The notes under the pieces are model-generated. The model ran no database searches. It was given only the letters and a program-made list of their open reading frames with translations, and had not been told where the DNA came from. Positions 12,201-39,800 of a DNA stretch of 64,000 nt are shown one piece after another (position 1 is the first letter of the stretch; each line of letters opens with the position of its first letter). The translations under genes were made by a program, and so were the position numbers. Source of the DNA: Haliotis rufescens (lineage: Eukaryota); assembly GCF_023055435.1 (NCBI RefSeq), contig NW_025964112.1:25234001-25298000 (forward strand). The letters are read 5' to 3'.

Positions 12201-12321
12201 AGTGGTATAGGTAATGGGGTTTCTGGCTCACTTCCACTCGCGCCAGATTTATACGCAATGCTGCTTCTAGAGAGGGATTTTTTTAAGCAAAAATGATGAT
12301 GCGATTCAATGATCGTCACGA
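12201..12321 (+). repeat. Left terminal inverted repeat of the Polinton
   Basis: agtggtatag...gccagatttata...agagggatttttttaagcaaaaatgatgatgcgattcaatgatcgtca matches the reverse complement of 30302-30423. Confidence 0.9.
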
Positions 12322-12354
12322 TTCGTTTTAAAAGAATCATCAATATTAATTAAT

Positions 12355-16916: not shown

Positions 16917-16920
16917 ATAT

Positions 16921-17127
16921 CTAAACACGTATTCTCCCCAACCTATTCCACTCGTTGATGTAATCTCTCTTCCTAGCGTAAATTATCTGGTTCCTGACCC
17001 TATCAGCGCTGTGTTTCTTGCATAAACAATAACAACCTTTGACCCCTATCCCACATACAGAACATGTATAATTACATTTCCTTGTCTGATGTAAAAGGCA
17101 TGAATCCCACAATATATACCAACGCAC
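16921..17127 (-). CDS. Small Cys-rich (possible Zn-binding) Polinton protein
   Basis: CSVCGIGVKGCYCLCKKH followed by a basic tail. The start is uncertain. Confidence 0.4.
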   Translation of the reverse strand: MRWYILWDSCLLHQTRKCNYTCSVCGIGVKGCYCLCKKHSADRVRNQIIYARKRDYINEWNRLGRIRV

Positions 17128-17300
17128 CTTTGTTGCATTGAATTGGCGTCCCCATGAGTGTAAATGTGCACCGATTCATGGTTAAACACCTATCATATCA
17201 TTTGTCTAAATGCAAATCACATCTCCACTTGGTGAGCAGTCAGCGCTATTTATAGAAGGCGAGTCATCGCTATTTATGTTGCCAGCTCATACGTAATAGA

Positions 17301-17678
17301 TCATAGCTTATGCATAATAATGTAGCTAAATATGGACACACAAGTCAACCCAAAAACTATTAACGCTATCTCGCGATCTTTCTGAGCCTTTGTCGGTGTA
17401 TAAAACTGACTTATTGTTGGCCTTGGCAACATTCTTAAACGTTTGAATTGAATGTCCTTGTTTACGAAGTTCATGATTAGGATATCTTTAGTAGTCATAG
17501 CTAGGCCTACATCTAGGACCATCATACCGATATCATAACCATTAAAATCTAGCTTGGGTGGTGTGGCTTCAGTAATCATTTTAGCTTAACGGGCATAGCC
17601 AATGGCAAAGCCGCTGACCACCACTGAATGATACATTGCATTTACCAACATTTTACCGTCTGTAACTGGAGTAATCAT
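17301..17678 (-). pseudogene. Two small predicted membrane proteins of the Polinton, fused or disrupted
   Basis: MITPVTDGKMLVNAMYHSVVVSGFAIGYAR*...PKLDFNGYDIGMMVLDVGLAMTTKDILI, then an ORF ending IALIVFGLTCVSIFSYII. Confidence 0.5.
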
Positions 17679-17682
17679 ACTT

Positions 17683-18069
17683 TTATAACATTACATGAGG
17701 GTTTAACTCTAATTGAACCTCATCTTGTGCAATTGCAATCAGTGTTTTCTCTTCTCTGGTCTTATAAAACAACCATACCAGCGCTATAATGCCTATGGCA
17801 TAGGGAGTTTTAATCGGGTGTGTGCTATGTTCAGTATTGTGTATTAGTTTTGCCTTTCTCAGTAGCGCACCCTTCCTACCAGCTGCAACTTTTCGAGGAT
17901 TCTTAGTTACTCTGACTTGTGGTGCAATCACTTGCGGTGATTGTGCAATCGGAGCTTGTGGTGTTTCCCCAATTGCTTTTGTTTCCTCATTCACTTGTTG
18001 TGCAATCGGAGTTTCCTCGTTCACATGTTGTGCAATCAGAGATTGTGCAATCGGTATTTCCGTCTCCAT
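17683..18069 (-). CDS. Polinton protein with PIAQ repeats, a basic KNPRKVAAGRKG motif and a C-terminal hydrophobic segment
   Basis: Open 128-aa frame with an ATG and the segment YAIGIIALVWLFY. Confidence 0.6.
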   Translation of the reverse strand: METEIPIAQSLIAQHVNEETPIAQQVNEETKAIGETPQAPIAQSPQVIAPQVRVTKNPRKVAAGRKGALLRKAKLIHNTEHSTHPIKTPYAIGIIALVWLFYKTREEKTLIAIAQDEVQLELNPHVML

Positions 18070-18071
18070 TA

Positions 18072-18495
18072 TTAGTAAGTTAGCCTAGCCATTATTAAAG
18101 TGGTGATAAGTGGGGCTCCGTATCTATGATAAAACTCACAGCTTACTGCGCTTATAGCGTGTTTGATGAATGGGTCTTTCTCGAGAGATTTGAATGAATA
18201 CGGTCGATTTTTTGCTCGGATAGGAAGAAAAGTACTAGCTATAGCTGTGTATAGTTGTAACATAGCCGAACCTATTGTTTTAGTCATGGTTGCTTCCAGT
18301 CTAGACTTGTAACACGCATATAGTTTTTTAATTTCCTCGCCGGTCATGTTATCATTTTTTTTCAGTGGTATAATATTGCCCCAAATATTAGGAACATTTT
18401 CCACCTGCTACCAAAGCCGCGAGTCTTTCTCTATGTTGATCTCTATGTTGATCAACTACAGGTTCTTGGAGCAGTTGTTCGATAAATTACATATC
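18072..18495 (-). pseudogene. Polinton hypothetical protein
   Basis: RERLAALVAGG...YLGQYYT then EEIKKLY...LEKDPF, with a frameshift or stop near 18380. Confidence 0.5.
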
Positions 18496-18589
18496 CAATA
18501 CAGCCTGAAATAATAAATTGTTGCTAAAGAATGAGGATTTCAAACCACATTATTACATAATAACCGCTAATGTTCAATTCATCACATTT

Positions 18590-18750
18590 TGCTAGATTTT
18601 TGCTATTTTTGCTAATTTGGCTATATTTTTGCTATAATTTTGTTATTTTTGCTTTAATTTTGCTTAATTTTACTATATGTTTGCTATAATTTTGCTATAA
18701 ATTTTGCTATTTTTACTGTAATTTTGCTATTCTTTGCTATTTTTGCTGAG
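18590..18750. repeat. AT-rich degenerate ~11-bp repeat (TTTGCTATAAT) inside the Polinton
   Basis: Repeated tttgcta(t)aattt units between the ATPase and the small-ORF cluster. Confidence 0.75.
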
Positions 18751-19333
18751 CAATTGAATAAGTAGCTGGTTGATCAGTTTTTAATACCAGTTTACAGTGC
18801 TTCGTTTCTGTTAACACTTTTCTGATTTTATCTCACTCGAGCTTGGTAGAAATAACATCATTTTTGCGTAGACATTCCTCTAAAGAATCTCAGTCTTTGC
18901 AACGAAGCAGGGCTACCCATTTGGTCTGCTCTCTGAGGTCTTTCAGAACAGATTTTTTTTGAGTAAGTACCCAAACACTTTGCTCCATATGACGTCCGGA
19001 GAATGCTAATATAAAAGCATATCTTTCTTTTTGGTAAGTTGATTCTCCTTTGTATTTTTGGTGACATACTGGTAAACAGTCTTCTAAACGATCGCTCGGA
19101 TCAACTTTGTACACCCCGGGATCATTCATTAGCCAATCTCTCGAAAGGTATGTTTTATTAAAGTTTATAGTCGGGCACAGAATAATAGTATGGGCGAAAA
19201 CATCCCGATAATGACCTTGTAAAATATCTAGAATAAAAGCTGTTTTTCCGCAACCCATTTGCCCACAGATAATAGGGCAGTGCGGTTCTTTAGGTAAAAG
19301 ATTATTAATAGATCGCTTGCACGAATCTTCCAT
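18745..19333 (-). pseudogene. A32/FtsK-like genome-packaging ATPase
   Basis: Walker A GQMGCGKT, IILCPT, and SGRH..QSVWVLTQK...DLREQ. The Walker B region appears deleted and the gene is frameshifted. Confidence 0.85.
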
Positions 19334-20445
19334 TCTGTATATTAAGTTGCGCGTCCATAATCACGTACAAATATATGTTAAATTTACCAGCCTGTTTGGC
19401 GAGCTTCGTTATCTGTATAGTAACACCCTCACTGGCATTTTCTATTCTCCGCCCACTACCGTGTAGTTGGTCATCGTCCGTGGTTCGCATGTCGAGCCAT
19501 AGCGCATACTTTGTGGTAAGGAATTAAGCCATCGTTACACCCCCGAGAGACAGATCTTTCACGACTGCATTAACTTCTGGGCTTCGTTTTATAGAAGGGA
19601 GTTTTTTAATCTCATCCCACTGTTGATATGCTCGCATACCTTGACTATATAGTTGATAAGGCACTCCCTCAATAGTCAATTCTACTTTTGTAATCTTGGA
19701 GTAGTAGAATGCCTCGGTATCTCTTGCAAATGCTTCAGAAGGGTCATCGAACAACATTAAAATACCCTTCAAAGATCTAGCAGGGTCATTTAGATTGATA
19801 TTCCACGTCAAATCTCTTTCGTTTCTGGTGATCTTTCGGTGTCAAAGCACGCGATCGTACAAAATGGCTAAACTTCTGGTATACTGGTTACGAATTTCAT
19901 ATCATACTCCAGTGAGATATTGTCAATAGAATGTGACTATCTAGTAATTCAAAGTCGAGCGGAATATAGAATCGGTTAGCAAATGCATCAGCAACAGCCT
20001 TATCTTCTACGATGGTATTATCGCCAGTAGAAGCACCCACACACAGTCTCAATGTGTTCTGATTACAAATACCTTGGTACTGTAAGTTTTCCCGTTCTTT
20101 AGCCATTCTCCAGAGATCCATGTAACAGAAGTATATATCGCTGTCGTCAATACTCAAAACCTCATTACCGCTAATTTTAATCACGATTTTCTTAACAATC
20201 ACACGACCTATGTTCTGCACGAGCTCCCTGGCCATGTCGGTTGAAGTCAAACTAATAGTAAATGATAGTTGGGCAGTTCCTGGAACTAACATATCGTGAG
20301 AGCCTAGATTAGGAAAGCGAACGTAGAAGTGTTTGATTCTGATCAATGGTACTTGGGTTATTAGTTATAGTTACAAACTGGCAAATTGCTTTGACCCCTA
20401 ATGGATCCCGAAGTCTACGTTGTGGGTTTAACTTTATTATTTTAT
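19305..20445 (-). pseudogene. Putative double jelly-roll major capsid protein
   Basis: Fragments KLNPQRRLRDPLGVK..ITNNPSTIDQNQ, VRFPNLGSHDMLVPGT, WNINLNDPARSLKGILMLF, KITKVELTIEGVP and YALWLDMRTTDDDQLHGSGRRIEN. Total size (~380 aa), beta-rich character and position next to the ATPase fit an MCP. Confidence 0.75.
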
Positions 20446-20447
20446 TA

Positions 20448-20723
20448 ACTTTGACTCTCGCGTTAACCGGTGGTGGTGGTACAGGAGGTGGCACACCATC
20501 TAGTGATAAGGGTGGTGTAAAAGAGTGTATAAAAAAGCATTTAAAAGCATTAGGAGAAGCACTGGGAAATCTCTCTGGGAAAGGCGCATCTGCACTTCCC
20601 GGTATAATAGGGAGTATAGTTTCCTGGCTCTTGAATTTATAAGGAAAGACCGCCACTTGGCTTAGTCAAAACTTGTGGGCACTGATCATAGCAATTGCCG
20701 GGCTGTTGTACGTATCCGCTTAA
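20448..20723 (+). pseudogene. C-terminal remnant of an amphipathic/transmembrane Polinton protein
   Basis: LTLALTGGGGTGGG...LKALGEALGNLSGKGASALPGIIGSIVSWLLNL*GKTATWLSQNLWALIIAIAGLLYV. The 5' part appears to be missing. Confidence 0.6.
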
Positions 20724-20724
20724 G

Positions 20725-21900
20725 ACTATTTATCCAAATCATGAGTAAACCAACCGCGACTCCACATACTGTAAGCGCTGTTTTTTCATCGATTTGTTGT
20801 TGATTTTTAGCGGCAATATATGGTGACACTTGTGGTTGTGCGTCAGTAGATGGTTGTGAAACATGTGGTGTCTGTACCTTTACTGTTCCCATTTCACCTG
20901 TGTTTGTTTGCGTTATTAATTTGGTGTTAATATCTGAATTTATACCTGGTTTTTGTTGATAGGTAGCAATAACAATTTTATTATTATAACCTATCACTTG
21001 GCCGATCTTAAGTTCCATATTACTCGGAGACATGTATAGTCCTGCCCAATAAAAATAGTCTACTTTGGATTGAGTGTACTGTAATACATCTTGATAACGT
21101 TATATAGAAGATGGTATGTCAACTGGTAAATTAATAGCATCCTCTACGTTTGCGACAAACTGTTTTGCACATTGAGCACGGTCCCAAAACCAATCATTCC
21201 CGTTCGTGTTTGTGATTGTGCACGAAGAATTGCCCATACATAAGTTCTTATTGATTAATTAACTCTTACAACTCCTGGGGTAGTAAAATTATTTTCTGTT
21301 TTATCACACAGAAATTCTTTCCAAGCGTTTGCGGTATCGTTTAGTTGCACAAATTATGTAACAATATAAGCTAAACCACACTTAAAACTCATAACATCTC
21401 CTCTCCAATTGTTACTCGAAAGTTCCCAGCCATGATTAAGATTATGCATTCTTACAAAAAGATTAGTTTTTCTGTAACAACTTAAATGGATTGAATGGTT
21501 GATGAGTTTTTTTAACTAAATCTTCACTTTCTTCTTTATCAGTTCTTTGTCCACTGTACGGAACACCTAGACCATGGTTAAGTCCTTTAATACGCCAATT
21601 TTTTACTCGTAGAAATATTAAATTCCTGACAAAAACGTTCATACACGATCCTATTGTACGGATTATTTGTGGAATTCCATGCTTGATCCTGCAGTAATGG
21701 AGCACTTATTTATTTAAGTATACGTCTAAATCTCATAGTACACGTGAAATGATAAAACAGACTTATTTAGTTCAAATCCTGGGGCATAAAGAGATACACC
21801 ACATCCTGTTGTGGCACACCATATGGCAAAGTTTAACTGGTTTTGCAAAAATTGCATTGGATTTTGGAACCATTCATGCACCATTTTATCGCTAGTTCCT
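20725..21900 (-). pseudogene. Polinton hypothetical protein with a C-terminal hydrophobic anchor
   Basis: QNQLNFAIWCATTGCGVS (~21800), RFHVYYEI, QFVANVEDAIN..VDIP..RYQDVLQY..SKVDY, SPSNMELKIGQVIGYNNKIVIA, and C-terminal TALTVCGVAVGLLMIW. Confidence 0.6.
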
Positions 21901-22029
21901 GTGACCCTGTATTTTTCAAAGATATCGAGAAAAATTTAATAAAAAACTAAGCACCAGAGGCACTTACTTAAATCGACTTATTCGTAATGTAAATTGATTT
22001 CATATTTAAGTTATGATATAGTATCTTTG

Positions 22030-22605
22030 TATATTTAATCTGTTTGGTACACTCCCAGGAATAACAAACGGTCAGTCTATTCAACTGCTTCATACTATCG
22101 ATAACTCAGCTGGGCAACTTGAAGTTGCTCTATGCAATGTAACGTATTACCCGCGGTGGACCAATATAAGTGCTGTGAGAGAAAATAATAAGTTATTGAT
22201 AGATAGAGACGTGTACACTATATCTGATGGGTATTACAGCGTATGCTGTCTCAATGATGAAATATTTAAGCCTTTTGGACATAGTCTCAAACAAACTGAG
22301 CCGAATGGGATGCTGATTTTAAACAATGGAGAAAGGGGTGTAACTCTTCTCCCGTACTTCGCAGATACACTTGGATTGTTTGGACAAAAAACAATAATAG
22401 GACCCAATGGAACATCGCATGGAGTTAAATTACCCGATTTAGTCAAAGATGAAAAAAACAATAGTGGTAGAACGGAATCTTTCTCATCATTACAATATAA
22501 AAGTTAAAGCGGGGCCTTTATTTCAGATCTCAAAATGTCTGCATTAGATGTAAAACATCAAACTGTGCATATAGGATACTTGAGTGTAACACTCCATATT
22601 ATAAA
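22030..22605 (+). pseudogene. Putative minor capsid protein (penton-like)
   Basis: IDNSAGQLEVALCNVTYYPRWTNIS..NN..TISDGYYS matches the pattern of Polinton minor capsid proteins. It is frameshifted and internally deleted. Confidence 0.55.
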
Positions 22606-23189
22606 TAATGGTTGATTCATCGGGGCCTGGAACGCATAACCTTAGACAATGTAATAAATTGCGCTATCCAATCTTGGAGACACAGAAGGATTTGGTAAAC
22701 CCGGTACCGATGGCAAGTTATACGCTTTACACTTACAAGATAATGTATACAAGCGAAAAGAAGTTGTATTCACAGGAAATCTAGATTTAAGTGATGTTGA
22801 TGTTAGTAGACTCAATAAAAACACTTCATACAATCTTACTCACAATGATGATAATAAATGGACTATGGTCGAAGAAAAAATCGAGTGGCTACTGAATATC
22901 GTCATTGCCCCACCATATGTGATGACGGGTAAGGTACATCAGTTAACTAAGATAATGAATAGTGGGATCGTACTCAAGACTTATATCCCCACAAAACGAA
23001 AAAGTGTGTTAGTCGCTCCCCTACCAGAAAACCGAGGTTATATAAACATGCACAAAAGTTCAGCGCCACCCACCATATTTGTGAGCTGTTACTTTTGGCA
23101 CTTAATGATGATTATTATTTATTACGTGATGTACGATTGTTATTAGCCGTATATGTAAACCTCATGTGATGCAAAAGTCGACCCAAAGC

Positions 23190-24631
23190 AAGTTTATCTT
23201 GTGTTCCAAAAGAATATGAGCAGAAAGGAATTTTACCGAAGACCAGAAATTGAAGGATTAGAAAACATTGAAAAATTTTTTTTGTCATGTAACTGTCATG
23301 ATATCAGCAGACCATATCAGGTGTTACATAGACACTGATATTGCAAGACAGAAACGTCAGTAACGTGTGTATGATCCACGGACATTGACCACAGCTTCAA
23401 CCCTACGCCTCATACTCATTACAAGTCGTTGAATGCTTCTCTGAGGCAAACGGATCCTTCTTCATGAAGTGCGGCTTCAAGTCCAGCGAGATTTTGAACT
23501 GGGGGATCACGATGTCTGATTTTCCGCCCAAGAATGTCCCAGAGATGCTCAATCGGATTAAGATCCAGACTACAGACCGGCCAAGGAAGAGTGGCAATAG
23601 CTTCCTGACGCGAATAAGCCAAAACTGCATTGTCGTCCATGAAAACAGGTCTTGTCTGAAGAGTATGGTTGTCAAAGTGAGGGACTACCACTGGACGAAG
23701 AATGGCATCTTGGTATCATTGGCCATTCAGGTTTCCACGAATTGTCACCATCGGAAGTTTGCAGCCGAAGGAAACACAACCCCATATCATGACAGACCCC
23801 CCGCCACATGCTAAGGTCTTCTTGATGTTCCTTGGTGCAAAACGAGTGTAACGTTGCCTCCAAACACGTATTTGACCATCAACAGTTCGTAGCAGCATTC
23901 GACACTCGTCAGACCAATGGATCCTTCTCCAGTTGGCCAAGTTCCATCGACTACGGGCACGACACCATATCAGACGATTCCGCATGTGCCTCTCAGTCAG
24001 TTGAGGACGTTTTACTGGTCTTCTGGCGTTATAAAAAGCCGCTCTGAGGCGACGCCTTACGGCCATCGTCAAGAATCTCTGATGGGTAATCCACTGCAGT
24101 CTTAAATCTGTTGAAGTGGCAAATAGATTTCGTCTGACTATCCTGAAAAGATGTCTATGCTCTCTGTTAGAGGTCTTTCTTGGCCTACCAGACCTATGCC
24201 TGTCATTGACATCATTGGTTTGACCATGTTTGACAATCAAACGAGTGATAACACTGTGATGACGACCCATTTGTCTTGCAATGGCCCTGCATGACATGCC
24301 AGCATTTTTCATGCCTATCACTTGCCATCTTTCAACGTTCGTTAACTTTCTCCTCACCATGGCTGATTTTCAACCTCTCTTGGAAGGGGAATCTCACACA
24401 GGAGCAAAATGCAACTACTTGTCTGAAACTTGAATTTCACTATTTACAGGGTAGGGGAACTGCAGCAACACGTAAAGCACGCTTTCCTTGTGGTATCTGG
24501 ACAAATTTGGGTTCATGGATAAATATGGATGCCTAATTCAGTCATACATCATCATATTTCGTATTTCTGATTCCAACACGTGAAATCAAGAGACTATGAA
24601 TATGATGGCGCTTAACTTTTGTGCATGTGTA
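23190..24631 (-). mobile_element. Tc1/mariner DNA transposon nested in the Polinton; transposase 23400-24360 is frameshifted
   Basis: HTH with SGRPRKT, WSDE, GGGSVMIWG, MDDNA and DLNPIEHLWD. A TA-bounded Tc1-like end (ttaacttttgtgcatgtgta) lies at 24612-24631. The left end is not defined. Confidence 0.88.
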
Positions 24632-25022
24632 TATGTTATTGAGTCATCCAGCATTAAAAATGTTAGTTTAAATTTGGTTACTGAATTCAATGATTTAAAA
24701 CAGAACTTGAGTGCTATAGCTGATCTTTCTACACTTATTATTGAAGTCTTGTTTTGGGGATGCATCGGAAGATGCCTTCGAGATATTACCAGGTCTATCA
24801 ATTAAATGGCTCAAGAAACACGAGTGTCGACGTTGCAGTATTATTTATATGGGAGTATCACCCATTGCAACCCTTGAGGGGGTCCAAGTTAATAAAAGTG
24901 AAAGCATTTCTCTTACTAAGATATTTATGCTGCATAATGTACATTTAATAAGGTTGATGTATACTCCCAAAACGTTTAAGCAAGATCAATTAAAGACTAT
25001 TATATGATATAATAATATACAT

Positions 25023-25528
25023 TATGAGTTTATATCTGGTGCTCGATGAAGCATGTGAAAAGATGGAAACTGTTGATGAATTTCGATTACATCAAATAAG
25101 CGACATAAAACATCGAATAGGGAAGGAGAGGGAGTTTAGACTTGAATTGTAACAAAAGTGTCGCAGAGCTGTGAATGTTCTCGATGGAGTTGACACTGCA
25201 CTTGTAACAGCTGGCATGGGACTCGGTGTAGCCGGTGTTGTTAATTATCAACTATAATTGCTGCGCCCAGCATAATTGGTAGCAGCTAGAGGCTCAGGAC
25301 TGGCAGGAATAGCGATAAAATTTATTTCTCGTAAGTTGCAAAAGAAAGCATTAAAACATGACAATATTCGGATTGAGGATCATATTTCAACAGCACTGGC
25401 TGAGTTTTGTCAGAAATAACCAAATACAACGCATTGAAGTAGGAGATTCGATCAAATTCTCATAAGACTAGTGGTATTAGTGAAGATGAGAAAAAAAGTT
25501 CACAGAACAGGGGAGACAACAAGCACTG
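25023..25528 (+). pseudogene. Polinton two-helix membrane/coiled-coil protein whose 3' end is displaced by the DIRS element
   Basis: MSLYLVLDE...FRLHQISDIK...RRAVNVLDGVDTALVTAGMGLGVAGV..STIIAAP..GLAGIAIKFISRKLQKKALKHDNIR, with stops and frameshifts. Confidence 0.6.
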
Positions 25529-25931
25529 CCTGACCCCATTAGCAAAACCTTTGTGCGACTACCGCCGCGGACCAAACTGTCAGCTACCGCTTGACAAGAC
25601 GACTTCCGCCGCCTGGCCCATATACGTGGCAATTGTTTGCCCCAACGTATGTTATTTTACAATTCCCCGGCTGAAAAGTTGGGAAAGACAAGGTTCCCAC
25701 TGAGAAGCAGATAACCCCGGAAAGGTTCCCGCTGAAAAGCAGGTAGCCTTAAGCACGAGTATTAATTTGGAAGCAAGTTAATTCGTTTCTACCAGTGTAG
25801 CCCACAAGAACCCCGCCACAAAGCACCAGAGTGCTACCCCACACCCATGGCCACCCGATACGCGGAGATAGCATTGTTGCCCCGCTTGCCTATGTACTGA
25901 AAAGAAACACTAACCTGTGGAGATAACATCC

Positions 25932-26479
25932 TTACTGGCACAAAACAAGTGCCAGGGCATGCAATAAATTGTCCGTAAACACACACAATCCTTTGTCACT
26001 GAGGTGGACGCCCTCCCAGGCGTACCATGTCTTGTCTGATGCCAGGATCTGGGGATGTGGCACCATTGTACCGCCGAGCTCTTTGACTCGGTTGGCCAGT
26101 CGGCGGTTGATATTCTTCCGCATCCCCTCGATCTTTAGTGGATCCCTGGCATCGTGCCAGTAGCGCCTCGGCAGAATTGAGGATATGATGATCTTGGTGT
26201 CAGGAAGCTGGAGTTGTATCTGAAGGATTGATGCCACCATGTCAAGGTAGAGTTGGCTGCCCTTGACCGAGCACAGGTCGTTGGAGCCCAGGTGAATGAT
26301 GAGGGCTCTGGGGGTGCGCCATGTCGCCTTGACCTGTGCATCCAGAATGGTGTCCAGCTCCTTCCACCTCATCCCCCCTCATGCCAGCCATAGCATCCTC
26401 GGTTGGTTCGGACTGGTGCCCTTCAGGAGCAAGTACTGCCATGCCCTGGCTATGTAGCTGGATCCCACCATCCAAACTG
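25932..26479 (-). pseudogene. SGNH/GDSL hydrolase carried by the retroelement
   Basis: Block I VWMVGSSY, block II GMRW, block III IIHLGSNDL and block V EGVHLS, with one in-frame TGA at 26379-26381. Confidence 0.85.
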
Positions 26480-26523
26480 TAAACAATAAGAAGTGTAGTA
26501 AGTACCATGAAAGACTATTTGAA

Positions 26524-27440
26524 TTAATTGTGTAACATTGAATTTGTTGGTAAGCGTATGTAAGCATTGTAGCAATCTGATTTCCACCTGCCGTATTGTT
26601 GTATGAGGTGTTCGGGCACCCTGTTCATGGCTGCTGATGTGGCTGCCCCAATGTGGAAGGAGTGCGAAGAATAGCAAGCCGTGTTTATGTTGCTGTGTGC
26701 TAAGGCCTTTTTTAGGAGTGCCTGGAATTGGTACCTTGTAACGCGGGAATGGTCGAAATGAACGAATGCATGTTGTGGGCCGGAGGGGCGCGTTTCCAGG
26801 TAGTGCTTGATGGCGACTACCGGACATAGTGGATTACCTGGTATCGATGACATTGTAACTGTTGTCCCCATCCTGTACTGATCAGACTTTGAGTGTGGTA
26901 AATGGATTGAAAGCTGCTGGGGGCTGCCCGAGAAGCTTAAATTCTGGATGGCGCAACCTGTTTTTGAGGGTCCAGTTTGGACCAGTTCGCTAACCCTAAA
27001 GAAACCGAAAAAGGCTGTGCAGTAGACTGCCTTGGACAGTCTGACTTCATATGCTGATGAGCATACGTGAGGCAGATTGTTGGTTACTACCTGCAGCAGA
27101 TCTGCAGTGATCGGTTTTCTGGTGTCTGGTCGGCCCGCTGATTTGTGTAAGCCTGTTAAAATCTTGCCTACCATGAAATGGTTTGTACAGTCGGTGAGCC
27201 CGTGGAATTTGTGGTGTGAAGACAGCGCTGCAATGTAAGTCTTGACTGTGTTAGGGGAGTGGTGAGTGACTGAGCGATAAGCAATGAAGTTTACTGGACT
27301 GGCCACACCTCTTGTAGCTGGTGTGTGGACCGGAACTGGTGCAAGGCATTGATGCCTGTTTGGTAGGTGGCCCATGTATTTGTAGACAGAGATTGTTGTA
27401 GGAGTCTGCCGGCTTCCTGCCTCAGATCAGCCATATGTTG
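26524..27440 (-). pseudogene. Tyrosine recombinase
   Basis: FFGFFRVSEL, SKSDQ, SHSFHIGAAT (the canonical HSFR Arg is replaced by His) and GRWKSDCYNAY. Confidence 0.92.
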
Positions 27441-29050
27441 CATGGGATAGGTGTGGGGTTCTGGTCTGCGGCTGGTGCTTCCTCTCGGAAGCGTTTGAGC
27501 TGAAACCTCGAGAGAGCATCGGCAATAGTGTTAGCAGTGGAACATACATACTTTGCCTGAAACATAATATTATACCGGAGGCACTGCAGGATTAGGCGAC
27601 GGAGTAGGCTCATCACTCTGGGGGCATTGGTCGACTGTTTGTTGATTATTGCTACGACGGCTTGGTTGTCGCAGTAAAAGAGCACCTTTTGTTTGCGAGT
27701 TGCTTGCCCCAAAGTTGGATGGCCAGTGTGATGGGGAACAGCTCCAGGAGCGTTAAGTCCCGTGTAGTTTCATCCGTCACCCACTGGGTTGGCCATGCGC
27801 CGTTAAACCATTTGCCCTGCATGAAGGCCCCAAAGCCGGCACCACCCGCTGCGTCTGAAAACAGCTGGAGGAAATCGCTGTCTACCCATAGTTGGTCCTG
27901 AAACACTGAAATGCCATTATAACTCGTAAGAAATGTTAACCACATTTGTAGGTCTTCCTTGACCCAGCTGGTAATCCTAATGTGGTGAAATGGTTGCTTA
28001 CCTTTGCTAAGCAGATCGATTAGCCTTCGGCTGAATGCCCTTGCCATTGGTATAGCCCTGCACATAAAGTTAAGCTTGCCTATGAGGGACTGAAGGGCCC
28101 TTTTTGTTACCTTGATGTTACCTGTTGACAGGATGTCTTGGATTTCCCTTGTCGCCTCCTTGATCTTGGACTCTGGGATTCTGATCTGCATTGCATTGGT
28201 GTCGATTTCCAGCCCTAAGAATGTCAGTTTGGTCGTGGGGCCCACCGTCTTGTCGTGCGCAATAGGGACCCCAAGCTGTTCTAGTGTATTCACGCATCCG
28301 TTGATGTTGTCCGAGCAGTGGCTGGTGCCTGCTGTGCCCCCCGTTAGGAAGTCATCCAGGTAATGCATGATCTGACACGTTGGAAGATGTGATTGCATGC
28401 ACCATTGCAAGAAGGTACTAAACGTTTCAAATATGGCGCAAGATATGGAGCAGCCAAATGGTAAGTATTTATCAATAGAACTCACCTTCAAATCTGATGC
28501 CTAGTAGCTCGAAATCGGATGGGTGGACTGGTATGATTCTAAAGGCCGACTGAATGTCAAATTTTGCTAGTAGTGCTCCCTTTCCCAGTTGTTGAACCAT
28601 ATGCGTAGCTCCAACGGAGCAGGCCTCTGTGTCTATGAAGTCATTTATAGATTTACCCCTGGGATAGGATAGATGGTGAATTAGACGGAATTCCTCCGCA
28701 TGCTTACCCAGATGCTGACCATAGCCTGGCTGCTTCTTGGGCACCAGGCCTATTGGGGATACTTGGAGGTTGTCCAGGGGGGTGTCCTTGAAGGGGCCCG
28801 CCATCCTGCCAAGGTCGACTTCCTTTTGTAGTTTTTGTTTCACGTAGCCTACCGTGTCTTGGTGCGTGGCTGATCGCAAGTTTCGTGCCAGGCGACCAAT
28901 GCGGCTTCCCTGGGACTTGAGCTTAAAGCCAAAGCTAAAACCTGCCCATAAATAATTTGCATCTCTGTAATTGACCCTAGCATATTGGCGTAACCAGGGT
29001 GCCATTTCATTGAGATCCACGGGGGAAGGGGCCATTGAATTTACCTGCCT
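27422..29050 (-). pseudogene. Reverse transcriptase and RNase H of the DIRS/Ngaro element
   Basis: SPIGLVPKK, FRLIHHLSYP, KFDIQSAFR, LPFGCSIS and YLDD for RT. FSDAAG, LLELFPI, CDNQAVV and NTIADALSR for RNase H. Two frameshifts. Confidence 0.93.
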
Positions 29051-30147
29051 TGACGGCTGGTTTTCTGTTAGGGAAAGGCTGATTGGGCTTGTATGGGGTC
29101 GGTTGGACCCCATTCCCTCGAAAGCAGATCCTAGAGCTGTGGGAATGTTTGCCACACTTACCGCATTTGTTAGTGTACTTGCAGTTGACCCTGCTACAGC
29201 CAAGTTTATTGAAATCCCAGCATACCTGACTGGCGATGTCCCCCTGTACGCGTGGCATTGCGGGCATTCTGGTTGTCGTGCCGGCTGTGTGACCATGTAC
29301 TTCAGCCACAACTCCCCGTCGATGTTGTCCCAGCGTCGTGAGCGGTCCCTTGACATTCTGTGTCCGAATTGTTGGTCGTAGGTTGACCAGGCATCCCCCC
29401 CCGAATCGGAGTGCCGCCGTTCTTATGGTTTCCATGTAGGACAGCAACCCCTGGGTTGTGCGGACCTCAGAGTGCCTACTAACATAGATATACATGAAAA
29501 TGTGGAAAGCTGAAGTCCAGCTTGCCAGGGACAGGCGCTTTGGTTGCTGCTTTATTGGTTTAAAAATTATCTTACCTGAGGAGTCGTACGCCATGATAAT
29601 CGTACCGTCCTCGTGACTTCCCTCGGTGTTTGGTAGGATTGTGCCGAGGTCAACAAACTCGCCACGCCAGATTTTTTCCCTCATCTGTTGTTTGACGTGG
29701 GCGTCTATTCCATCCGCATGGAAGGATAGGGAATCCCCGTATCCTGCATTCTGATTGGCTGGCCAAGTCGCGTCACCGTCGGCCTCGTTGTGAGCATCGG
29801 GGATTCTCCCTATGTTTTGCGAAATGGCGGGAGAACTAAGTCCAAGCCTTACCTGTTGGTTTGCGCTAACCGGGCTGGGTGCTGAATGTTCCAGCAAACT
29901 GGAGTATTTTTTCAGGTTGCTCTTTTACCTGGGTAGCCGAGTTGGCAGCCTGCGTGGCATTTACAAGCTGCGCCGATTGTACGTTAATTCTGTTGCCACC
30001 TTCGATATTTCCGTAATTGGAAGACTCAGCATCAGCTGTTGCCTCCTGCATAATGTGTACTCCAGGGGTTTATCTTCTGGTTGTCCTGGCCTGCTTGGCT
30101 CCCCTCCCCAGCTTATGGCTGACGCCTGCTCTTCTCTTGGGAGGCAT
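29007..30147 (-). pseudogene. Gag-like ORF1 of the DIRS/Ngaro element
   Basis: Starts MPPKRRAG (ATG at 30147). Contains KIWRGEFVDLGTIL, WTSAFHIFM and a Cys/His finger CWDFNKLGCSRVNCKYTNKCGKCGKHSHSSRIC, with a few disruptions. Confidence 0.85.
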
Positions 30148-30301
30148 CACGAAAGGTCGAGGTGGTGAGTTGGTATTCCACAAGTGTAAAAATGTCCCGA
30201 GGATGAAGTTCGGGAGTAGAACGGAATAAATTTAGTAGTTAGTACTAAATGTAAGTATGAGAAATAATAGAGAATATTTTCATTACAAATTTAGTATAGT
30301 C

Positions 30302-30423
30302 TCATGACGATCGTTGAATCACATCATCATTTTGACATAAAAAAATCCCTCTGTAGTGGTGGTATAAGTATATAAATCTGGCTCTAGTGGGGTTGTGATA
30401 AAACTGTCATTGTCTATACTACT
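30302..30423 (-). repeat. Right terminal inverted repeat of the Polinton
   Basis: Reverse complement reads agtagtatag...gccagatttata...agagggatttttttatgtcaaaatgatgatgtgattcaacgatcgtca. Confidence 0.9.
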
Positions 30424-30654
30424 CACGTGTAGCAGGCTATCATGTCGGTTGCGGTGATGCGTTTAGGCGATTGGTTTTATTGTCATCTGCTTTGTTTGTT
30501 TTTTTTGTCATTAAATTTCATTTTTCCGGACAAGGTAATGTTAAATTTTAGAAACTTTGACAAAAATTACCCAGATACTTAAATGACAACTTTTCATGCA
30601 ATGTTACTTGGGTGACGTTTCTTTTGCGGTTCAGTATATTACCTGGTGCTTCAC

Positions 30655-31215
30655 TCACCGTGTCAGTTTTGGCATTGCTTAATCTGTACACAATATATTA
30701 TGTCAGTTTTGTCCCTAATATTCAGTCCCTAACATTGCTTGGTCTGTACACGTTATATTATGTTAGGTTTGTCCCTAACAATGCTTGGTCTTTACACGAT
30801 ATTATGTCAGTTTTGTCCCTAACATTGCTTGGTCTGTACACAACATACTATATCAGTTTTGTCACTAGCATTGCTTGATCTGCACACTATATTATATCAG
30901 TTTTGTCCCTAACATTGCTTGGTCTGTACACTATATTATATCAGTTTTGTCCCGAACATTGCTTGGTCTGTACAAAATATTATATAAGTTTTGTCCCGAA
31001 CATTGCTTGGTCTGTACACGAAATACCATTTCAGTTTTGTCACTAGCATTCTTTCCCTGACATTGCTTGGTCTGTACACGATATATTATGTCAGTTTTGT
31101 CCCTGATATTGCTTGGTCTGTACACGATATATTATGTTAGTTTTGTCCCTGACATTGCTTGGTCTGTGCACGATATATTATGTCATTTTTGGCCCTAACA
31201 TTGCTAGGTCTTACA
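30655..31215. repeat. ~46-bp minisatellite, CAGTTTTGTCCCTAACATTGCTTGGTCTGTACACGATATATTATGT
   Basis: About 12 units with period 46 (e.g. 31092 and 31138). Confidence 0.93.
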
Positions 31216-31259
31216 CAATATTTAATTTGACATGTGTTACTAATTGAGGTCAGTGACAG

Positions 31260-34000
31260 AACGAGCTCTTGGTTATTCGCCATGGTTTCCCTTCTCAACA
31301 TTGTTTTGGATATCTAGTATCCGGCACACATACAAGTTTACACCAATATTTAATGCACCGACCACACTCACCTAAAACAGCTGCAGTAGTAGAAGATTTG
31401 CCAACACCTAGAACATATTTACAATACTTTACATAAAAGTGCCTCCCATTTATGCCAACCCCATACCTCAGATGAATACAACAGAATATGTTTTATTTGA
31501 GAATCAGACATTTTAAAGAGAATGGTGGGAGCAAGATTATTACTGCAATTGGTTTATAGGGAAAAGTGCTTTACTAGCTTTGTGATTAAGTGTTTGCACT
31601 GATGTTCACCATGAAAGTCTATTTGAAAATATGATACAAAGATAATAATAGTAGGTTGAGGTTTTCAGTGCAATATCATTATACATCAATTTTTCAGTAT
31701 TCTTAAGTTAACCACAGTTACGGAACACAAGGATTTCAGTTTTATTGAAATTTACTTAAAAGTCCACTTTGAGTAACATTTTCATTTTCATACGTATTTT
31801 CATTTGCAAACCAATAATACTGTCACAAAACAGACACAAATCATCTGCATATAGTAATAAAATCAAGTCGAAAAAGCCTGCACTAGCAAAAATTCCTCTC
31901 CCGTCATGCTGCTGTAATTCATCTTCAGGTTGGTTGACAAACATACTAAATAGAAGTGGACTTAGAATACAACCTTGACGAACACCGCTTAAACAATCAA
32001 AATATTCGGAAATGCTGACATTTGACATTTTAACGGCTGCTTTTGTCTTATACATATGTCGAATTATATTCAGCATTTTGCCTTTAATATCTTGTTGAGC
32101 ATACCATAAAATATATCTATTGATAGAATCAAAAGCTTTATGAAAGTCTACGAATACACAATAAAGTCTACCCCTGGATTTGGATAAATATTTCTGAATT
32201 ATTGATTGTATTATAAAAATATTATCAGTTTTAGAAAAGCCAGTGCGAAATCCAGCTTGACAAACTTGACAGTTTTAAGTCTATTATTTAAAAAACTTAA
32301 ATATTTTACCTCAGATGTCCATTAAAGAAATTCCTCTCACATCGTTTGTATATTGCCTTTCTTGTGAAATCGGAAATTTATACTTTTAGACCAATGCAAT
32401 GGAAAAACACCAGATTCAAAAATACTATAAAAAAGAACACGTAACTATGGTAGTAACACAACACCACCATGTTTTCCACATTTCAACAGGAATTCCAATA
32501 CTTCCAGCGACATCTACTGAAAACTGCTTATACACGAAGCTGGGGAATAAGACTTTCCTAGTAAGGATTTTACACCAGTCCAAAATTGTTTCGAGTTTCC
32601 CTTATCACCTGTATCAAGTCGATGTATATCTAAAGACTCATGGTAATATTCACATTTCACGCGACAAAGGCCTCTGTATTCATTACGAGCAAAGTGAAAC
32701 TGACTCAAGTAGCTGGTTTCTCCTGTTGCTCTAAATTGGTCTAATTTCAGTGTTATACATTCTGCATCATACTAAGCATCGGTCGATTTTTTCTTCCCAG
32801 ATAATCTACCCATTTACCCCTCCCAGCTTTTCTAGCACTAGACTATAAACATTGGGATAACTCTAAGTGTCATTACAAACTAAGGGTATAAACTTGATAC
32901 ATAGACCAGTTAGAAAGATTATTCAGAAGGCATTGAACAAACGTGTCAGAATGTTCTGGTCTCCATCTGTACTGAACAATTGGGAGAACAGCTTCTTTAG
33001 TTATAACCTTTTGCACATAGTTACAGTTTGCCTGATTGAACAAGAAAGAGGAAAGTGATCTGATTCAGAGCGTGTGTGAGCATTAAAAGTATCATTAAGA
33101 TCAAATAACTCTATTGAGCATATTATATAGTCCACAAGATATGCACCGTTAGAGGCAAAAAAGGTAAAGCTACCACTTGGATCATCTGGGAAACGACCAT
33201 TAAGCATATGTATTCCATATGTGCAACACAGGTTAATAATTTCTTTTCCAAAATCGTTAACGTCCTTCTCCCTTGAAACCCTGGATATATGAGTGAGAGT
33301 ATGGTTTCTTAGCAATATTCCAGCATTATCCCAGCGGGGTACACCAGAAATGTGCTTCACACATTGTACCTATGTTAGGAATAGAACCCGGTTCGTCGGC
33401 GTGATGAGCGAACGTTTTAACCACGAGGCTATCCGACCGCACCCCTTGGTATATAAAGGAATCTTTTACATATTGCATATCATTCAGATTCTGTATGTAA
33501 ACATAACTATCATCATCATCGTAAAGTATGTAATCCGCTCATGATCATGTTCAAGCATAACAATCGCCTGCTAGTATAATGTCAACATCACTGTACAGCG
33601 TCAGTAGTTTAAGAAGACATGACTCGATAAAGTCAATACCCTTAACATCGTGCTTGTCAGACTGAACTGAAGATAATAAATGGTAGACATAAACAAATCC
33701 AAGCCAAATGTCTTTTTTCAAATCCGAAAACGTTAGCGTCTAAGAGAACATCAATGCTATCACTGAAGTTTAAATTTACTCCCTGTTTAAACACATTTCT
33801 GATCAACAGTGAGACTTCACCTCTATTGTTGTACTTGGGATAATTTACAAACACATAGTAATCATGAAAACACATCTCAATGTTATCTTCCGAACAATTA
33901 CTGAAAAATATCAAACGAATCACAAGATTCAATACAATCTCCATTTCGTATTTTGTTACCTAAGCCGTGTACATTCCATGTCATGAGAGTTATGACATGA
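31260..34000 (-). mobile_element. Decayed non-LTR retrotransposon ORF2 (APE endonuclease and RT, no RNase H seen)
   Basis: TWNVHGL (~33975), LVDYII..SDHFPL, QAGFRTG, FVDFHKAFDSI, GVRQGCILSPLLF, LLYADD and AVLGECGR. Confidence 0.88.
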
Positions 34001-34424
34001 CTGTGCTATGACCAGGGGAGATGTTATTGTTACAGCAAAAACCCTTGAGGCTGCCCATACACTTTTGCAAGTCACAGAGCATGATGAACATTTTGTCACA
34101 ACTCATGAGCCTGAACTATTAATGACAACCCGTGAAGTTTTCTATGGTATTATCTGGATATTGAGATGAGTGAAATTGAGGACGAAGTAAAACCTGTTTT
34201 ACCTCTAATGTGCTCTGCTGTGCGTCTGACTCATGGACCTGATAAAGTTTCCACCAAATCTGTTCTGCTCACATTTACTGGTCAGTCTTTACCAGATCAT
34301 GTTGTCATTTTCTTTCAGAGCTTTCAAATCCGGATGTATGTTCCTCCTGTCAGTTTCAGTCCTTTGGGCAAGTGTAGGAGCACTCATCATGTGTGTGCTA
34401 AATGTGGAGGGAAGCACAAATATG

Positions 34425-34887
34425 CATCTTCCCGAGACAAGGGAGTTAACTGACTCTAAGAGTCCAGTTTCCACCCTTGCCAAACTAGGCTGGTATTATG
34501 GAGTTACATTTTGGCTGGACTAACGAGTCTATGCATAGTCCAATCAAAATCGCGCACTGAAATCGAAATCCTGTTCGAATCTTTTCATGATTTTAATCAA
34601 GGTGCTCACGTGACTTGATGCGTTTCGCGATGTAAGACCCGTTTTATCACATTATAGATATTGATTATCGATCAGATCGTCCTGACTTGGCGCCACAATT
34701 TTGTGTGAAGCAAGCGCAAGTCATACGAGAGGTGGAATCTGATTGGTCCATAGGAGAGGCTTAGAAGGGACATAACACGTAATAGACACTGAGGGCGCTA
34801 CGATCGAGCCCAGTAATTCCAGCCTAGTTCGACAAGGGTGGAAACTGGACTTTTAAAGTCAGTAAACTCTCTTGCCTCGGGAAGATG
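34425..34887. mobile_element. MITE (463 bp) with ~75-bp TIRs and a 9-bp TSD ACAAATATG
   Basis: The TIR catcttcccgagacaagggagttaactgactctaagagtccagtttccacccttg... is mirrored at 34810-34887. The TSD lies at 34416-34424 and 34888-34896. Confidence 0.93.
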
Positions 34888-36617
34888 ACAAATATGTGGA
34901 GTGCAATGAAAGTTCTCTTAAATGTAAGAACTGTGGTAGTGCTCTCTCTGTGGCATACAAAGGCTGTCTTAAATACCAGGAAGCGATCCAGACCCAGAAA
35001 GTCAGAGTTGAGGGTAAACTGTCTTATTTCTCAGGCTGTTCGAAAGGTGTGTGGAGACTTAGATATTGCTCCTGGTCAGATTCCAAAATTCCATAAACCA
35101 ACCCTGCAGCTTAACCACTGTCTCCTGTTGTTCCAATTTCTGATGTTGTATCTCCTCCTGTCATGGTCATGGTGTCATGGTGACTACTAGTACTCAGACT
35201 GAAGTTGAATGTCAGACTGATCCTGTTATTGAACTTGTGCCTGAATCTCCTTGCAAACCTCTATTCAACGATGTCTCTCCTGTTGATTTTCTCAAGTTTG
35301 TTATTTGTATAGTTGCAAACCTTGGAACTATTCATGCCTTCAAGTCTGATAGTCTCCAGACGATAGCAACAGCTGCCCAGTTCCTCTTGTGGTTAAAATT
35401 GTCCCCTGATGATCTGAAGAGCATGGTTAAGGTTCGGCAATAGAAGTCTTAATCCTTCTTATGGCTATCTTTATCCTTCAGTGGAAAGCTTGATCAAAAA
35501 ATGCTAATGGTCCAGGATTTAAGGTTTTTATGAAGAGTCTTGACCCATTGCCAGATGTTATATGTCTTCCGGAGACGTTCTTGAATCCTAAACAGCAATT
35601 CCGTTGGGAAGGTTATGTCTGCCTACGTAAAGATCGTCAGTTTGGTTTTAGAGGACGTTGTGCTATACTCATAGGAATCTTTGTCTTAGTGACATTAGGT
35701 TGCCACAATCCAAATTAGAAGCGAATGCAGTCAATATTTATTTGATGGATAAAAGATCAGTCTCGATTATTAATGTCTATAATAATGCTATTGCTTCCAG
35801 TGAAGATGATAATTCTATATTGAATGTTTCAGACAATCTGAAAGTATTGTGTGAGGATTTTAATAGTCATAGTCCATTGTGGGGAGCTAATAAATTGGAT
35901 GCTGGAGGTAAAGTCATTGAGAGACTTCTTGACGAATAGAATCCTTTCCTTCTTAATGATGGTTCTATGACCTGATATGACATGGCTTCTGCTTCATTTT
36001 CGGCCCTGGATTTGACCACTGTCATTCCACAACTGGATCTCTGCATTGTGATTGGGAAATATATTTTCATGATTCCTTTGGCAGTGATCATTATCCTGTG
36101 TTTACCAACCTTCACCTTGACCCAATCGCTGAACTGAGAAATACCGATATTCTCTAGAGCTGACTGGTCTGCATTTACTGCTTTGTGCTCTGACACTATC
36201 ACCCCTGCTATAAACTCTATTGACATACAGCAGTTTCACAAATGCTTTGTTCCTAACATTATTGATGCTGCCAATAGATTTATAGGCAGAAGTTCTTGTA
36301 AACGTCCTCTTAAACCGCCTGTTTGTTGGTGGACGGATACATGTCAATCAGCACATGATGCCAGGAAGAGGGCAAAGAAAAATGTTCTTTCTCTTTCAAA
36401 TCGGCTTTACCGTCTGCTTTTCTTGAGTATAGGTGCACTTCTGCATTCCTTAAAAGAACTGTTATTGAAGCACAATGTTTGTCTTGGGCTAATTACACCA
36501 CTTTTATAAAAAGAAATACACCTCTTTCTCAGGTATGGAGGAAAGTGAAAAAGATTTCTGGTAGTTCATGTCCCGTCTACTGGTCAAAACATGCCTACAA
36601 CAACAAGTATTGACAAG

Positions 36618-36887: not shown

Positions 36888-39800
36888 TATTGACAAGAGT
36901 AATGCACTGGAACAGTCATTTCAAAAAGTATCGAGTACAGAAAACTTAAACTCAGACTTTTTACACTATAAGTAAACACTTGAATCAGAATTCTCGGACA
37001 TCAGGTGATGATGTTATGTTATATCTCCCACTTATCAGCCTTCAAACCATGCTTTTACTTTTTAATAATATTTGGTTTGAAGGCAAACTTCCGATTTCTT
37101 GGAAAAAAGCAATAGTAGTTCCGATTCCGAAGCCTGGTAAAGATCCTAAAAAAGCCACACCCTACAGACCTATTGCTCTTGCCTCTAACATGTGTAGAAT
37201 AATGGAGAGAATGGTAAATAACCGTCTGATTTACTTCATGGAAAAGAACAATCTCTTTTCACACATTCAATCGGGCGTTCGGAAAAATAGATCTTGTGCT
37301 GATCATTCAGTGCGCCTTGAAACTGAAAATAAAAAGGCCATAGGTAGCACTGAATATTTAATGGCTGTTTTCATGGACATTGAAAAAGCTTATGACATGT
37401 TTTGGAGGGAAGGTTTGATAATAAAACTGTATAAACTTGGAGTTTGTGGACGTATGCTTGATTGGATATACAAGATTTCTTAAGGGGTAGAAATATACAA
37501 GTTCGCATTGTCTGCGTTTCATTTACATGTTAGAGAATGGAACACCTCAAGGAAGTGTTATCAGCTCAACATTATTTAATGTCATGATAAATGATTTGTT
37601 TGAGAATATCAATATTCTTGTTGAAACATCACAGTTTGCAGATGACGGAGCGTTGTGGAAACGGTCCAGTAATTTTGACACTGTCTTCAAAGGTGTTCAA
37701 CAATCTCTCTATCTTGTACAGAATTGGTGTGTACATTGGGGTTTTAAAAATTCAGCCTCTAAATCATCTGAAATTATTTGGACTCGGAAGAAGATTCCTC
37801 ATAATTCAAAATTAGTGGATAAAGTCATGTTTTTAGGTCTCTGGTTTCATAAGAGGCTCACCTTGAAACACATGGACTATCCAATTCAGAAGTGCACTTA
37901 AGTCCTGAACGTTCTGAGAAGTATTTCCAGTGTCAAATGGGGTGCAGACAGGAAGTGTTTATTAATGTTATATTGAGCCCTCATTTTAGATCTCGACCTG
38001 ATTTCGGATGTTTAGCCTATGCATCTGCATGTGCCTTTAAAAAAGCAAGACTAGTTGTTGTTCAGTCCAAAGCCCAAAGATTATGTCTTTGAGCGTTCAG
38101 AACCACCTCTGTCGAGGCTTTACAAGTTGATTCGGATGAAATGCCTTAAGATCTCAGACGGGAACTGTTAGAAGTTCGATATATATTAAAATTGAAATCA
38201 TTTGGGAGAAGATACCCGACGTCAAAAGTGTTAAATGATTGTGTTGAATATTTTCAGGATTCTTTGAAAAACGGGATGGGATGCGTTCTCAAAGAACTGT
38301 TTTCAATCATACTGTACGTGACATTGCAAAAGATGACGCTAAAAGCTGCCATGGTTGATTAAACTGCCATCAGTTTATCTTGATGTCCTGGAACAGGTAA
38401 ATAAATGTGAGCCAGCACCTCGAGTTAAAGCTATAGCTGAGGAACATATTCGAAGTACTAGTTTACAGTGGTTAAATTCCATGCAGATTTACACTGATGG
38501 ATCTAGTTTCCCAGTGTCCGGTCGTGTTGGTGCTGGTTTCTTCATTGTTTATGAACAGAAAGAACTTTCTATCCGTTTGCCTATCACTTGTCAGTATTAT
38601 CTGCCGAACCTGGAGCAATCATTGAAGCATTGCGTTGGATTCATTTTTAAGGCCTGTATCAGCAGTAATTTTCAGTGACTCTGTCAGTGCATTATAAACA
38701 ATTCGTGTAGATTCTTCCTCAGCGAGGCAGGACTTGATCAACATTATTTTCGACCTTTATAATGAATTAAGTAAAGATCTGTTAGATGTTGAATTTCCAT
38801 GGATCCCTCCCTGCTCATGTTGGATTACTTGGAAATGTGTGAGTGCGTGAGTGGCAAAAGCTGCATAAGAGTTTGATGAATCAGAACAGGATGAGACCAT
38901 TTTACCTTTTCCTGAAGAAATAGGCACCGTCAGTATAACCCGTGCTAACAAAATTGCAGAAGAGGTGGGCATCATCCTTAAAAGGGCGTCATTTCTATGG
39001 CATCGATACTTTCGTCTTTGTCTTGGGCATTGTGGTCTTGGTGCATATCTCAATGTTATTAAAACATACATTTCTGCACAGTGTACAGTGTGTAATCAGC
39101 TTGACAATGTGGCTCGTTATTTACTGCATTGTCAAAAATATGAAAATCAGCGTAAGGCAATGGTGGATTCTTTCACAGTTCTCAATATTGACCTCTCATT
39201 AGCTGGACTTTTATGTACTAGAAATATCGTTCGCCATGATGTTCAGAATGTCATTCTTGCGCATATAAAGCGTGTGGTTCTTTTACTACTTTATGAAATA
39301 TCTAGGTACTTAGCAAACCTTTATCATGGGCAAGGTCTAAATGGGCCTAGTTGCCCAAACACCTATAAAACTTTTAATGATCAATCAATCAGTCAAGAAC
39401 CAAGCTTATCAAACCGCAAACGGCATCTCTCTAACATAGCTCAGTGAAGAAAGATTCTTTTTCACTGGTCATTCATATTTTGCAGGGAATTGGTTGGTTT
39501 TATATTTATGGTTAAGTGAACAAGCTTATGTAAATACCTTGCACAGTATTCGTCGATATGTATATGTGTACCAAATGACAGTTTGTATTTGTAAAGCTGT
39601 ATATACATATGACTTTGTCAAATATTACACTGTGGTACAAATTATGTCTACATTCAACTGCCAACCGTTGCTGTTACGATGATTCTTTTAAAGGGGTGGG
39701 TTTATTTGGATATGTTTTCTTATTGGATAAATATCAGGATTGTAACAGTAGTTAATTACATTTAAAACGGTTTTAATTGGTATAATAATTATATATGGAT

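Follow-up and report, generated by a model that had tools for sequence, protein, structure and literature searches.

The window analyzed here is the 64,000-nucleotide stretch of contig NW_025964112.1, and its main feature is a retrotransposon carrying an SGNH hydrolase gene, probably an end-less copy of Ngaro type, nested in a decayed Polinton close to the right terminal inverted repeat (TIR) of that element. We consider it probable that the nesting is an ordinary chance insertion with no bias toward viral DNA and that its target was one member of an abundant, probably already decaying Polinton family. Ngaro elements are reverse-transcribed, restore their ends via split direct repeats, and integrate by means of a tyrosine recombinase. 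The initial annotation had suggested a passenger or a target-specific parasite of the virus-like element, with capsids as a possible route of spread. The retrotransposon is a passenger only insofar as it inserted later. We found no support for target specificity or capsid-mediated spread, because the host copy is decayed, it also collected an unrelated Tc1 transposon, the retrotransposon is far rarer than the Polinton family, and the single displayed flank of another retrotransposon copy is not Polinton DNA.

The retrotransposon is about 4.7 kb long and lies on the minus strand (Table 1). Its contrast with the surrounding element holds as first described: the GC content is 50.6% in 25524-30201 versus 38.2% in 12201-25516, and stop-free frames of 316, 305, 300, and 282 amino acids compare with a longest frame of at most 234 amino acids on the Polinton side. 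On the minus strand, the Pfam domains follow in the order RVT_1 (E value of 1e-8), RVT_3 (0.005), Phage_integrase (2e-4), and Lipase_GDSL_2 (9e-8), which bears out the proposed tyrosine recombinase retrotransposon with an SGNH hydrolase. The gag-like open reading frame (ORF) begins with an ATG at 30147 and is damaged by a stop at 30070-30072 and frame slips at 29896 and 29395. In the reverse transcriptase (RT)/RNase H gene, there are slips at 27686 and 28473 and, relative to other copies, a deletion near 28610. RNase H ends at 27422, at the start of the recombinase frame, leaving no room for a methyltransferase domain, and no methyltransferase match was obtained among the eight element frames scanned. 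The recombinase retains the first Arg, the Lys, and the Tyr of its motifs, and the H-x-x-R position reads HSFH. The hydrolase match (33.2 bits) is barely over the Lipase_GDSL_2 cutoff of 32.9; the frame also matches PDB entry 4c1b, an "ORF1-encoded protein" (E value of 0.011), and shows the blocks G-S-S, G, G-S-N-D, and E-G-V-H with one premature stop at 26379-26381. To our knowledge, no function has been proven for the Ngaro hydrolase.

The combination of RT/RNase H with a tyrosine recombinase, and no DDE integrase, places the element in the DIRS order. The lack of a methyltransferase after RNase H and the SGNH ORF after the recombinase, a feature of some members, are Ngaro-like, while the split direct repeats of that group (A1-ORFs-B1-A2-B2) are absent from this copy. 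The inverted terminal repeats, internal complementary region, and methyltransferase of DIRS1-like elements are likewise lacking. PAT-like elements are defined by split direct repeats with a methyltransferase (PMC7192593), and the present element has no methyltransferase and carries a hydrolase. Since the split repeats are missing, we file the element only as Ngaro-type, probably an end-less copy, and not as a certified member. Self-comparison with a word size of 4 revealed no terminal repeats, direct or inverted, in this copy, and its two ends share no 9-mer. An un-restored transcript with short end overlaps was considered and dropped, as no overlap was found at the ends. Two short internal repeats of about 32 bp lie in the tail at 25690-25750.

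Atlas neighbors are commonest in Mollusca and Cnidaria, which is a hint only, and a viral-contig search returned no relative of the recombinase. A metagenome scan yielded two loci from 90 candidate stretches, both with 35% recombinase identity; no Polinton gene is present in their 3.2 and 10.6 kb of contig, which is weak evidence because these relatives are distant. One of the two, L001, has 91%-identical direct repeats (773-981 and 1254-1470) in a B1-A2-B2 layout, with no hydrolase frame between the recombinase and B1.

The host element is a Polinton, as it combines pieces of an rve integrase, PolB, packaging ATPase, and capsid gene with TIRs. The initial annotation had already described a virus-like element next to a right TIR, and both inverted arms and all four Pfam matches were recovered. 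Each match is below its curated cutoff because the genes are in pieces. We take PolB to be of the protein-primed type and assign its gene limits by known motifs. The TIR arms are identical at 74% of the aligned columns. With its passengers, the Polinton measures 18.2 kb, which is within the usual Polinton size range, and about 11.9 kb remain once they are subtracted. The inverted match extends a few bases past both TIR ends (12193-12200 and 30424-30432), and a possible damaged target duplication, which in Polintons measures 5 to 6 bp, is seen there: a 6-bp palindrome in the right flank recurs on the left minus one base, also within a satellite unit. Searches of PHROGs, PDB, and phages gave no name to the PolB pieces or the interrupted gene. 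No relative of the capsid piece or of the TIR pattern was found among viral contigs, and none of the TIR pattern among genome contigs. About 250 bp of noncoding-looking DNA lies within the PolB frame at about 15300-15555 and is possibly a third passenger.

Other copies were examined in public DNA runs. Of the 24 runs listed, 19, under five organism labels, contain 30 to 54% of the sampled words of 21000-30600. Assembled contigs of four runs (X1, X3, X10, and X16) were overlaid on 22700-30600 at 82% likeness; the results below draw on 40 of 690 substitutions, 12 of 41 indels, 15 of 425 joints, and 24 of 3,367 loose ends. The Polinton side is deeper than the retrotransposon body by factors of 13 (X1), 30 (X3), 64 (X10), and 33 (X16), these being summed contig depths and not copy numbers. 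The tail bin 25604-25867 is itself 3.9, 5.0, 4.6, and 5.7 times deeper than the body in the four runs. Thus, most Polinton copies are without the retrotransposon, and the tail is repeated in the family, like Ngaro terminal or solo repeats. An X10 contig in which 13 other letters are all that separates 25098 from 30262 is a deleted Polinton copy without the retrotransposon. In X3, other retrotransposon copies on three contigs match from 25524 inward, and their continuation outside this match shares no 7-mer with the Polinton flanks. We also considered this X3 loose end as further element sequence. It shares six 7-mers with the tail, a number reached in 17 of 2,000 shuffles, but 50 of 846 background and 18 of 153 body windows equal it, and the idea is not claimed. 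The same Polinton also collected the unrelated Tc1 passenger, whose transposase has one break and whose empty-site joints were found in three of the four runs overlaid (X1, X10, and X16).

The retrotransposon hits the last codons of a conserved gene whose end lies in the right flank, so the earlier reading of a Polinton gene interrupted near its end stands. The gene encodes a protein of about 200 amino acids with a hydrophobic middle and has 49 homologs at E values of up to 0.001. It matches no Pfam or PHROG family, and the viral-contig search gave no relative. For one homolog, the closest cluster in Atlas is 58% viral, most commonly Preplasmiviricota, a recognition below the strong level, and the family may be the adintovirus "GasderminX" (PMC8502044). 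The gene is already broken: premature stops lie at 25150 and 25440, the frame slips, and compared with other copies there are small deletions near 25373 and 25403.

The exact join, which the initial annotation had placed at 30225, was probably misplaced. A C-terminal profile was built from 9 of the 49 homologs (16 were of 185 to 235 amino acids, and 9 of these had the end motif). In seven of these nine, 8 residues separate the conserved G-R from a terminal xKL-like motif, and the earlier join leaves 4. When stretches were scored, unjoined, against the homolog residues after G-R, the five codons from 30202 ranked second of 43,500 plus-strand starts; the chance of a hit this good anywhere among the 46 starts covered is about 0.2%. 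In the minus-strand control, one start scores the same as 30202. The left boundary is uncertain within 25516-25523, because the codons at 25517 also score high (top 0.5%). Given the G-R spacing, the rank of 30202, and the X3 matches from 25524, the insertion more probably extends from about 25517/25524 to 30201/30208, with the Polinton resuming at 30202-30209. On this corrected span, it would lie about 94 to 100 bp from the right TIR, and the target would be continuous within a base or two. Shared end words of at least 3 letters occur in 10 of 1,196 candidate end pairs, which is chance level, and a shared 3-bp word as a mark of recombinase crossover was therefore dropped. For DIRS1-type elements, a trinucleotide is expected at both ends (PMC7192593), so a missing target site duplication, as proposed in the initial annotation, would not be diagnostic. 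An exact empty-site joint is absent among the joints listed, 15 of 425, so that its absence proves nothing.

Both elements are dead. The Polinton has diverged TIRs, and none of its tested genes is intact; in the retrotransposon, we see stops, slips, the HSFH motif, and no terminal repeats. Breaks (stops plus frame slips) were counted as a lower bound. Polinton coding sequence (5,815 bp) contains at least 25, or 4.3 per kb, and the retrotransposon (4,177 bp) at least 5, or 1.2 per kb (one-sided P = 0.003); by this measure, the Polinton looks older than the retrotransposon.

On the preferred reading of chance nesting, a Ngaro-type family of tens to a few hundred copies, a rough figure from depth, would have put one copy into one of many Polintons. 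Such nesting is plausible given how much more abundant the Polinton family is; with an assumed Polinton share of 0.5 to 1% of the genome and 50 to 150 random insertions, the probability of at least one nested copy is 0.22 to 0.78. The integrated molecule was probably an end-shortened cDNA, since the 5' A repeat and the final B repeat are both missing here, yet the target gene runs on across the insertion to within a base or two. It may have entered through the recombinase acting off its normal junction or through break repair. An end-shortened copy would be unable to restore its ends again, and both elements would since have decayed neutrally.

Several points weigh against this reading. The loose ends and joints listed (24 of 3,367 and 15 of 425, respectively) include only one at a junction, a thin basis. 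The depth ratio limits the proportion of Polintons carrying the retrotransposon (to less than about 8%), not the share of retrotransposons that sit in Polintons. Normalizing the breaks to shuffled sequence of equal composition gives 0.35 versus 0.20 (P = 0.17), and the age gap is then not significant, so that death of the Polinton before the insertion is likely, though unproven. Finally, 91% of the type 1 Ngaros of Cafeteria are inside endogenous mavirus-like elements (EMALEs) (PMC8547959).

That precedent, in which some insertions fall in TIRs and genes, is what speaks for a retrotransposon family that prefers Polinton DNA in the way that Cafeteria type 1/2a Ngaros prefer virophages, the present copy being a decayed example. 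An insertion so close to the TIR, affecting no more than the end of a gene, would have cost an active host little, and the flanks of other retrotransposon copies are almost unseen. We nevertheless regard such a preference as unlikely: the sole displayed 3' continuation, in X3, is not Polinton, the same Polinton took an unrelated Tc1, the two relatives, weak witnesses at their distance, have no Polinton gene nearby, and a tail four to six times deeper than the body is expected of scattered solo repeats. A preference of a hydrolase-carrying Ngaro family specifically for sites near the TIR and gene ends of animal Polintons is quite improbable; if true, it would extend the virus-targeting behavior known from Cafeteria to animals and provide a means by which the retrotransposon could spread horizontally.

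A scenario in which the Polinton was still active when hit, and afterwards carried the retrotransposon along as cargo through transposition or inside capsids, is to our mind very unlikely. In its favor, the damage is confined to the final codons of a single accessory gene, the total length of the composite fits the usual Polinton range, and the composition-scaled age gap is not significant; butterfly polintons stay mobile with cargo (10.1101/2025.02.07.637071). On the other hand, a quarter of the positions differ between the TIR arms, all tested viral genes are broken, and the retrotransposon has about a quarter of their breaks per kb. Polinton copies without the retrotransposon exist and dominate, and reactivated Cafeteria virophages carried no full Ngaro in the text available of PMC10945749. 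A further alternative concerns the ends only and is compatible with chance insertion: the copy may be complete as it is, from a family without split direct repeats or with very short ends, a structural variant of Ngaro. The missing repeats next to a continuous target gene argue against a later trimming of the ends by large deletions, and the Repbase consensus of Xenopus DIRS-54_XT also lacks repeats, yet two genomic copies of DIRS-54_XT did have them (PMC9210276). With the deeper tail in all four runs, which fits a repeated or solo unit, and the B1..B2 repeat pair of L001, we think this doubtful.

Table 1. Positions of the nested elements and their genes in the window
Feature	Position	Strand	Evidence and remarks
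Host Polinton/Maverick, decayed	12201-30423		TIR pair; rve, PolB, ATPase, and capsid matches
Left TIR	12201-12321	+	90/122 columns identical to right arm; directly abuts 28-bp satellite array 10056-12201
Polinton integrase, broken (at least 4 breaks)	12363-13250	+	rve, E value of 1.3e-5 at 12562-12765; limits by eye
PolB, broken (at least 11 breaks)	13275-16080	-	DNA_pol_B, E value of 0.019 at 13548-13865; translation
Packaging ATPase, broken (1 break)	18880-19360	-	Pox_A32, E value of 0.004
Major capsid protein, broken (2 breaks)	19524-20364	-	Capsid_N, E value of 3e-4
Tc1/mariner transposon, second passenger	23040-24634	-	HTH_Tnp_Tc3_2, E value of 2e-9; TIR 27/29
Interrupted Polinton gene, main part	25024-25523	+	49 homologs; tblastn cover 25024-25523
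3' noncoding tail of retrotransposon, 408 bp	25524-25931	-	No repeat partner within this copy
SGNH/GDSL hydrolase frame	25932-26486	-	Lipase_GDSL_2; PDB 4c1b; motif blocks
Tyrosine recombinase, 300 amino acids open	26524-27426	-	Phage_integrase; Atlas 0.98 to eukaryotic tyrosine recombinase clusters
RT/RNase H	27422-29040	-	RVT_1, RVT_3; translation
Gag-like ORF1	29007-30147	-	zf-CCCH_10, E value of 0.009 (weak); "gag-like" by position only
5' leader of retrotransposon, short (54-61 bp)	30148-30201	-	No A1 repeat
Tail of interrupted Polinton gene, itself broken	30202-30242	+	Stop at 30240-30242; starts 16-23 bp inside earlier boundary
Right TIR	30302-30423	-	Inverted-repeat arm, pairs with 12201-12321

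The surroundings are a satellite-flanked, transposon-rich region of an animal genome. Satellite arrays with units of 21, 28, 44, and 38 bp occupy 1-12201, 30725-31221, 48561-50806, and 56260-64000, and both 44-bp arrays are of one family. LINE-type RT fragments, a second Tc1 fragment, and a fragment of a major facilitator superfamily transporter are found at 31756-32274 (minus strand), 36950-37901 (plus), 54994-55419 (plus), and 45450-45878 (minus). An inverted pair resembling a miniature inverted-repeat transposable element, with arms of about 85 bp that are 87% alike and 315 bp apart, lies at 34415-34898. Amid the repeats, an open frame of 376 amino acids at 53459-54589 (plus strand) contains both GT10 fucosyltransferase domains (E values of 7e-57 and 2e-22) and is a single-exon host-type gene.

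As it stands, the element is one more hydrolase-carrying Ngaro-type family, from an apparently invertebrate host, and matters little; nesting is expected where Polintons are abundant. In Xenopus, Ngaro-like elements are known in which an SGNH ORF follows the recombinase (DIRS-53_XT and DIRS-54_XT), and degenerate copies there often lose their 5' or 3' repeats (PMC9210276; see also PMC6681497 and PMC7192593). The present copy shares with these two the order of gag-like, RT/RNase H, tyrosine recombinase, and SGNH genes, the overlapping frames, and the lack of a methyltransferase. It differs in having no split direct repeats and in its apparently invertebrate host. DIRS and Ngaro types as well as Mavericks occur in bivalves (PMC10294476).

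The host element resembles animal Polintons/Mavericks (adintoviruses; PMC8502044) in its TIRs, rve integrase, PolB, packaging ATPase, capsid gene, and conserved membrane-type accessory gene; unlike in the adintoviruses, all tested genes are broken, and only about 11.9 kb remain without passengers. Mobile butterfly polintons with LINE (long interspersed nuclear element) or Gypsy cargo have been proposed as a route of horizontal transfer (10.1101/2025.02.07.637071). There, too, a retrotransposon is nested in a polinton, but those composites are recent and multicopy, while the one described here is old, and no second composite copy was seen.

In the literature covered, which was judged for the most part by listings and excludes subscription journals and Repbase Reports, we found no animal counterpart of the association of Ngaros with virophages in Cafeteria. 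Invasion of polinton-like viruses and virophages by transposable elements is also described from Halocafeteria (10.64898/2026.07.28.741278). Like the Ngaros in the EMALEs of Cafeteria burkhardae (PMC8547959 and PMC10945749), our element is a GC-rich tyrosine recombinase retrotransposon inside an AT-richer, TIR-bounded, capsid-encoding element. In Cafeteria, the preference was counted over 80 copies, the hosts were intact and could be reactivated, and the partial texts of these papers mention no hydrolase; here, we have one dead copy in a dead Polinton. Enrichment of the family in Polintons, should it emerge, would parallel in animals what is known from Cafeteria and would provide a testable example of retrotransposon hitchhiking.

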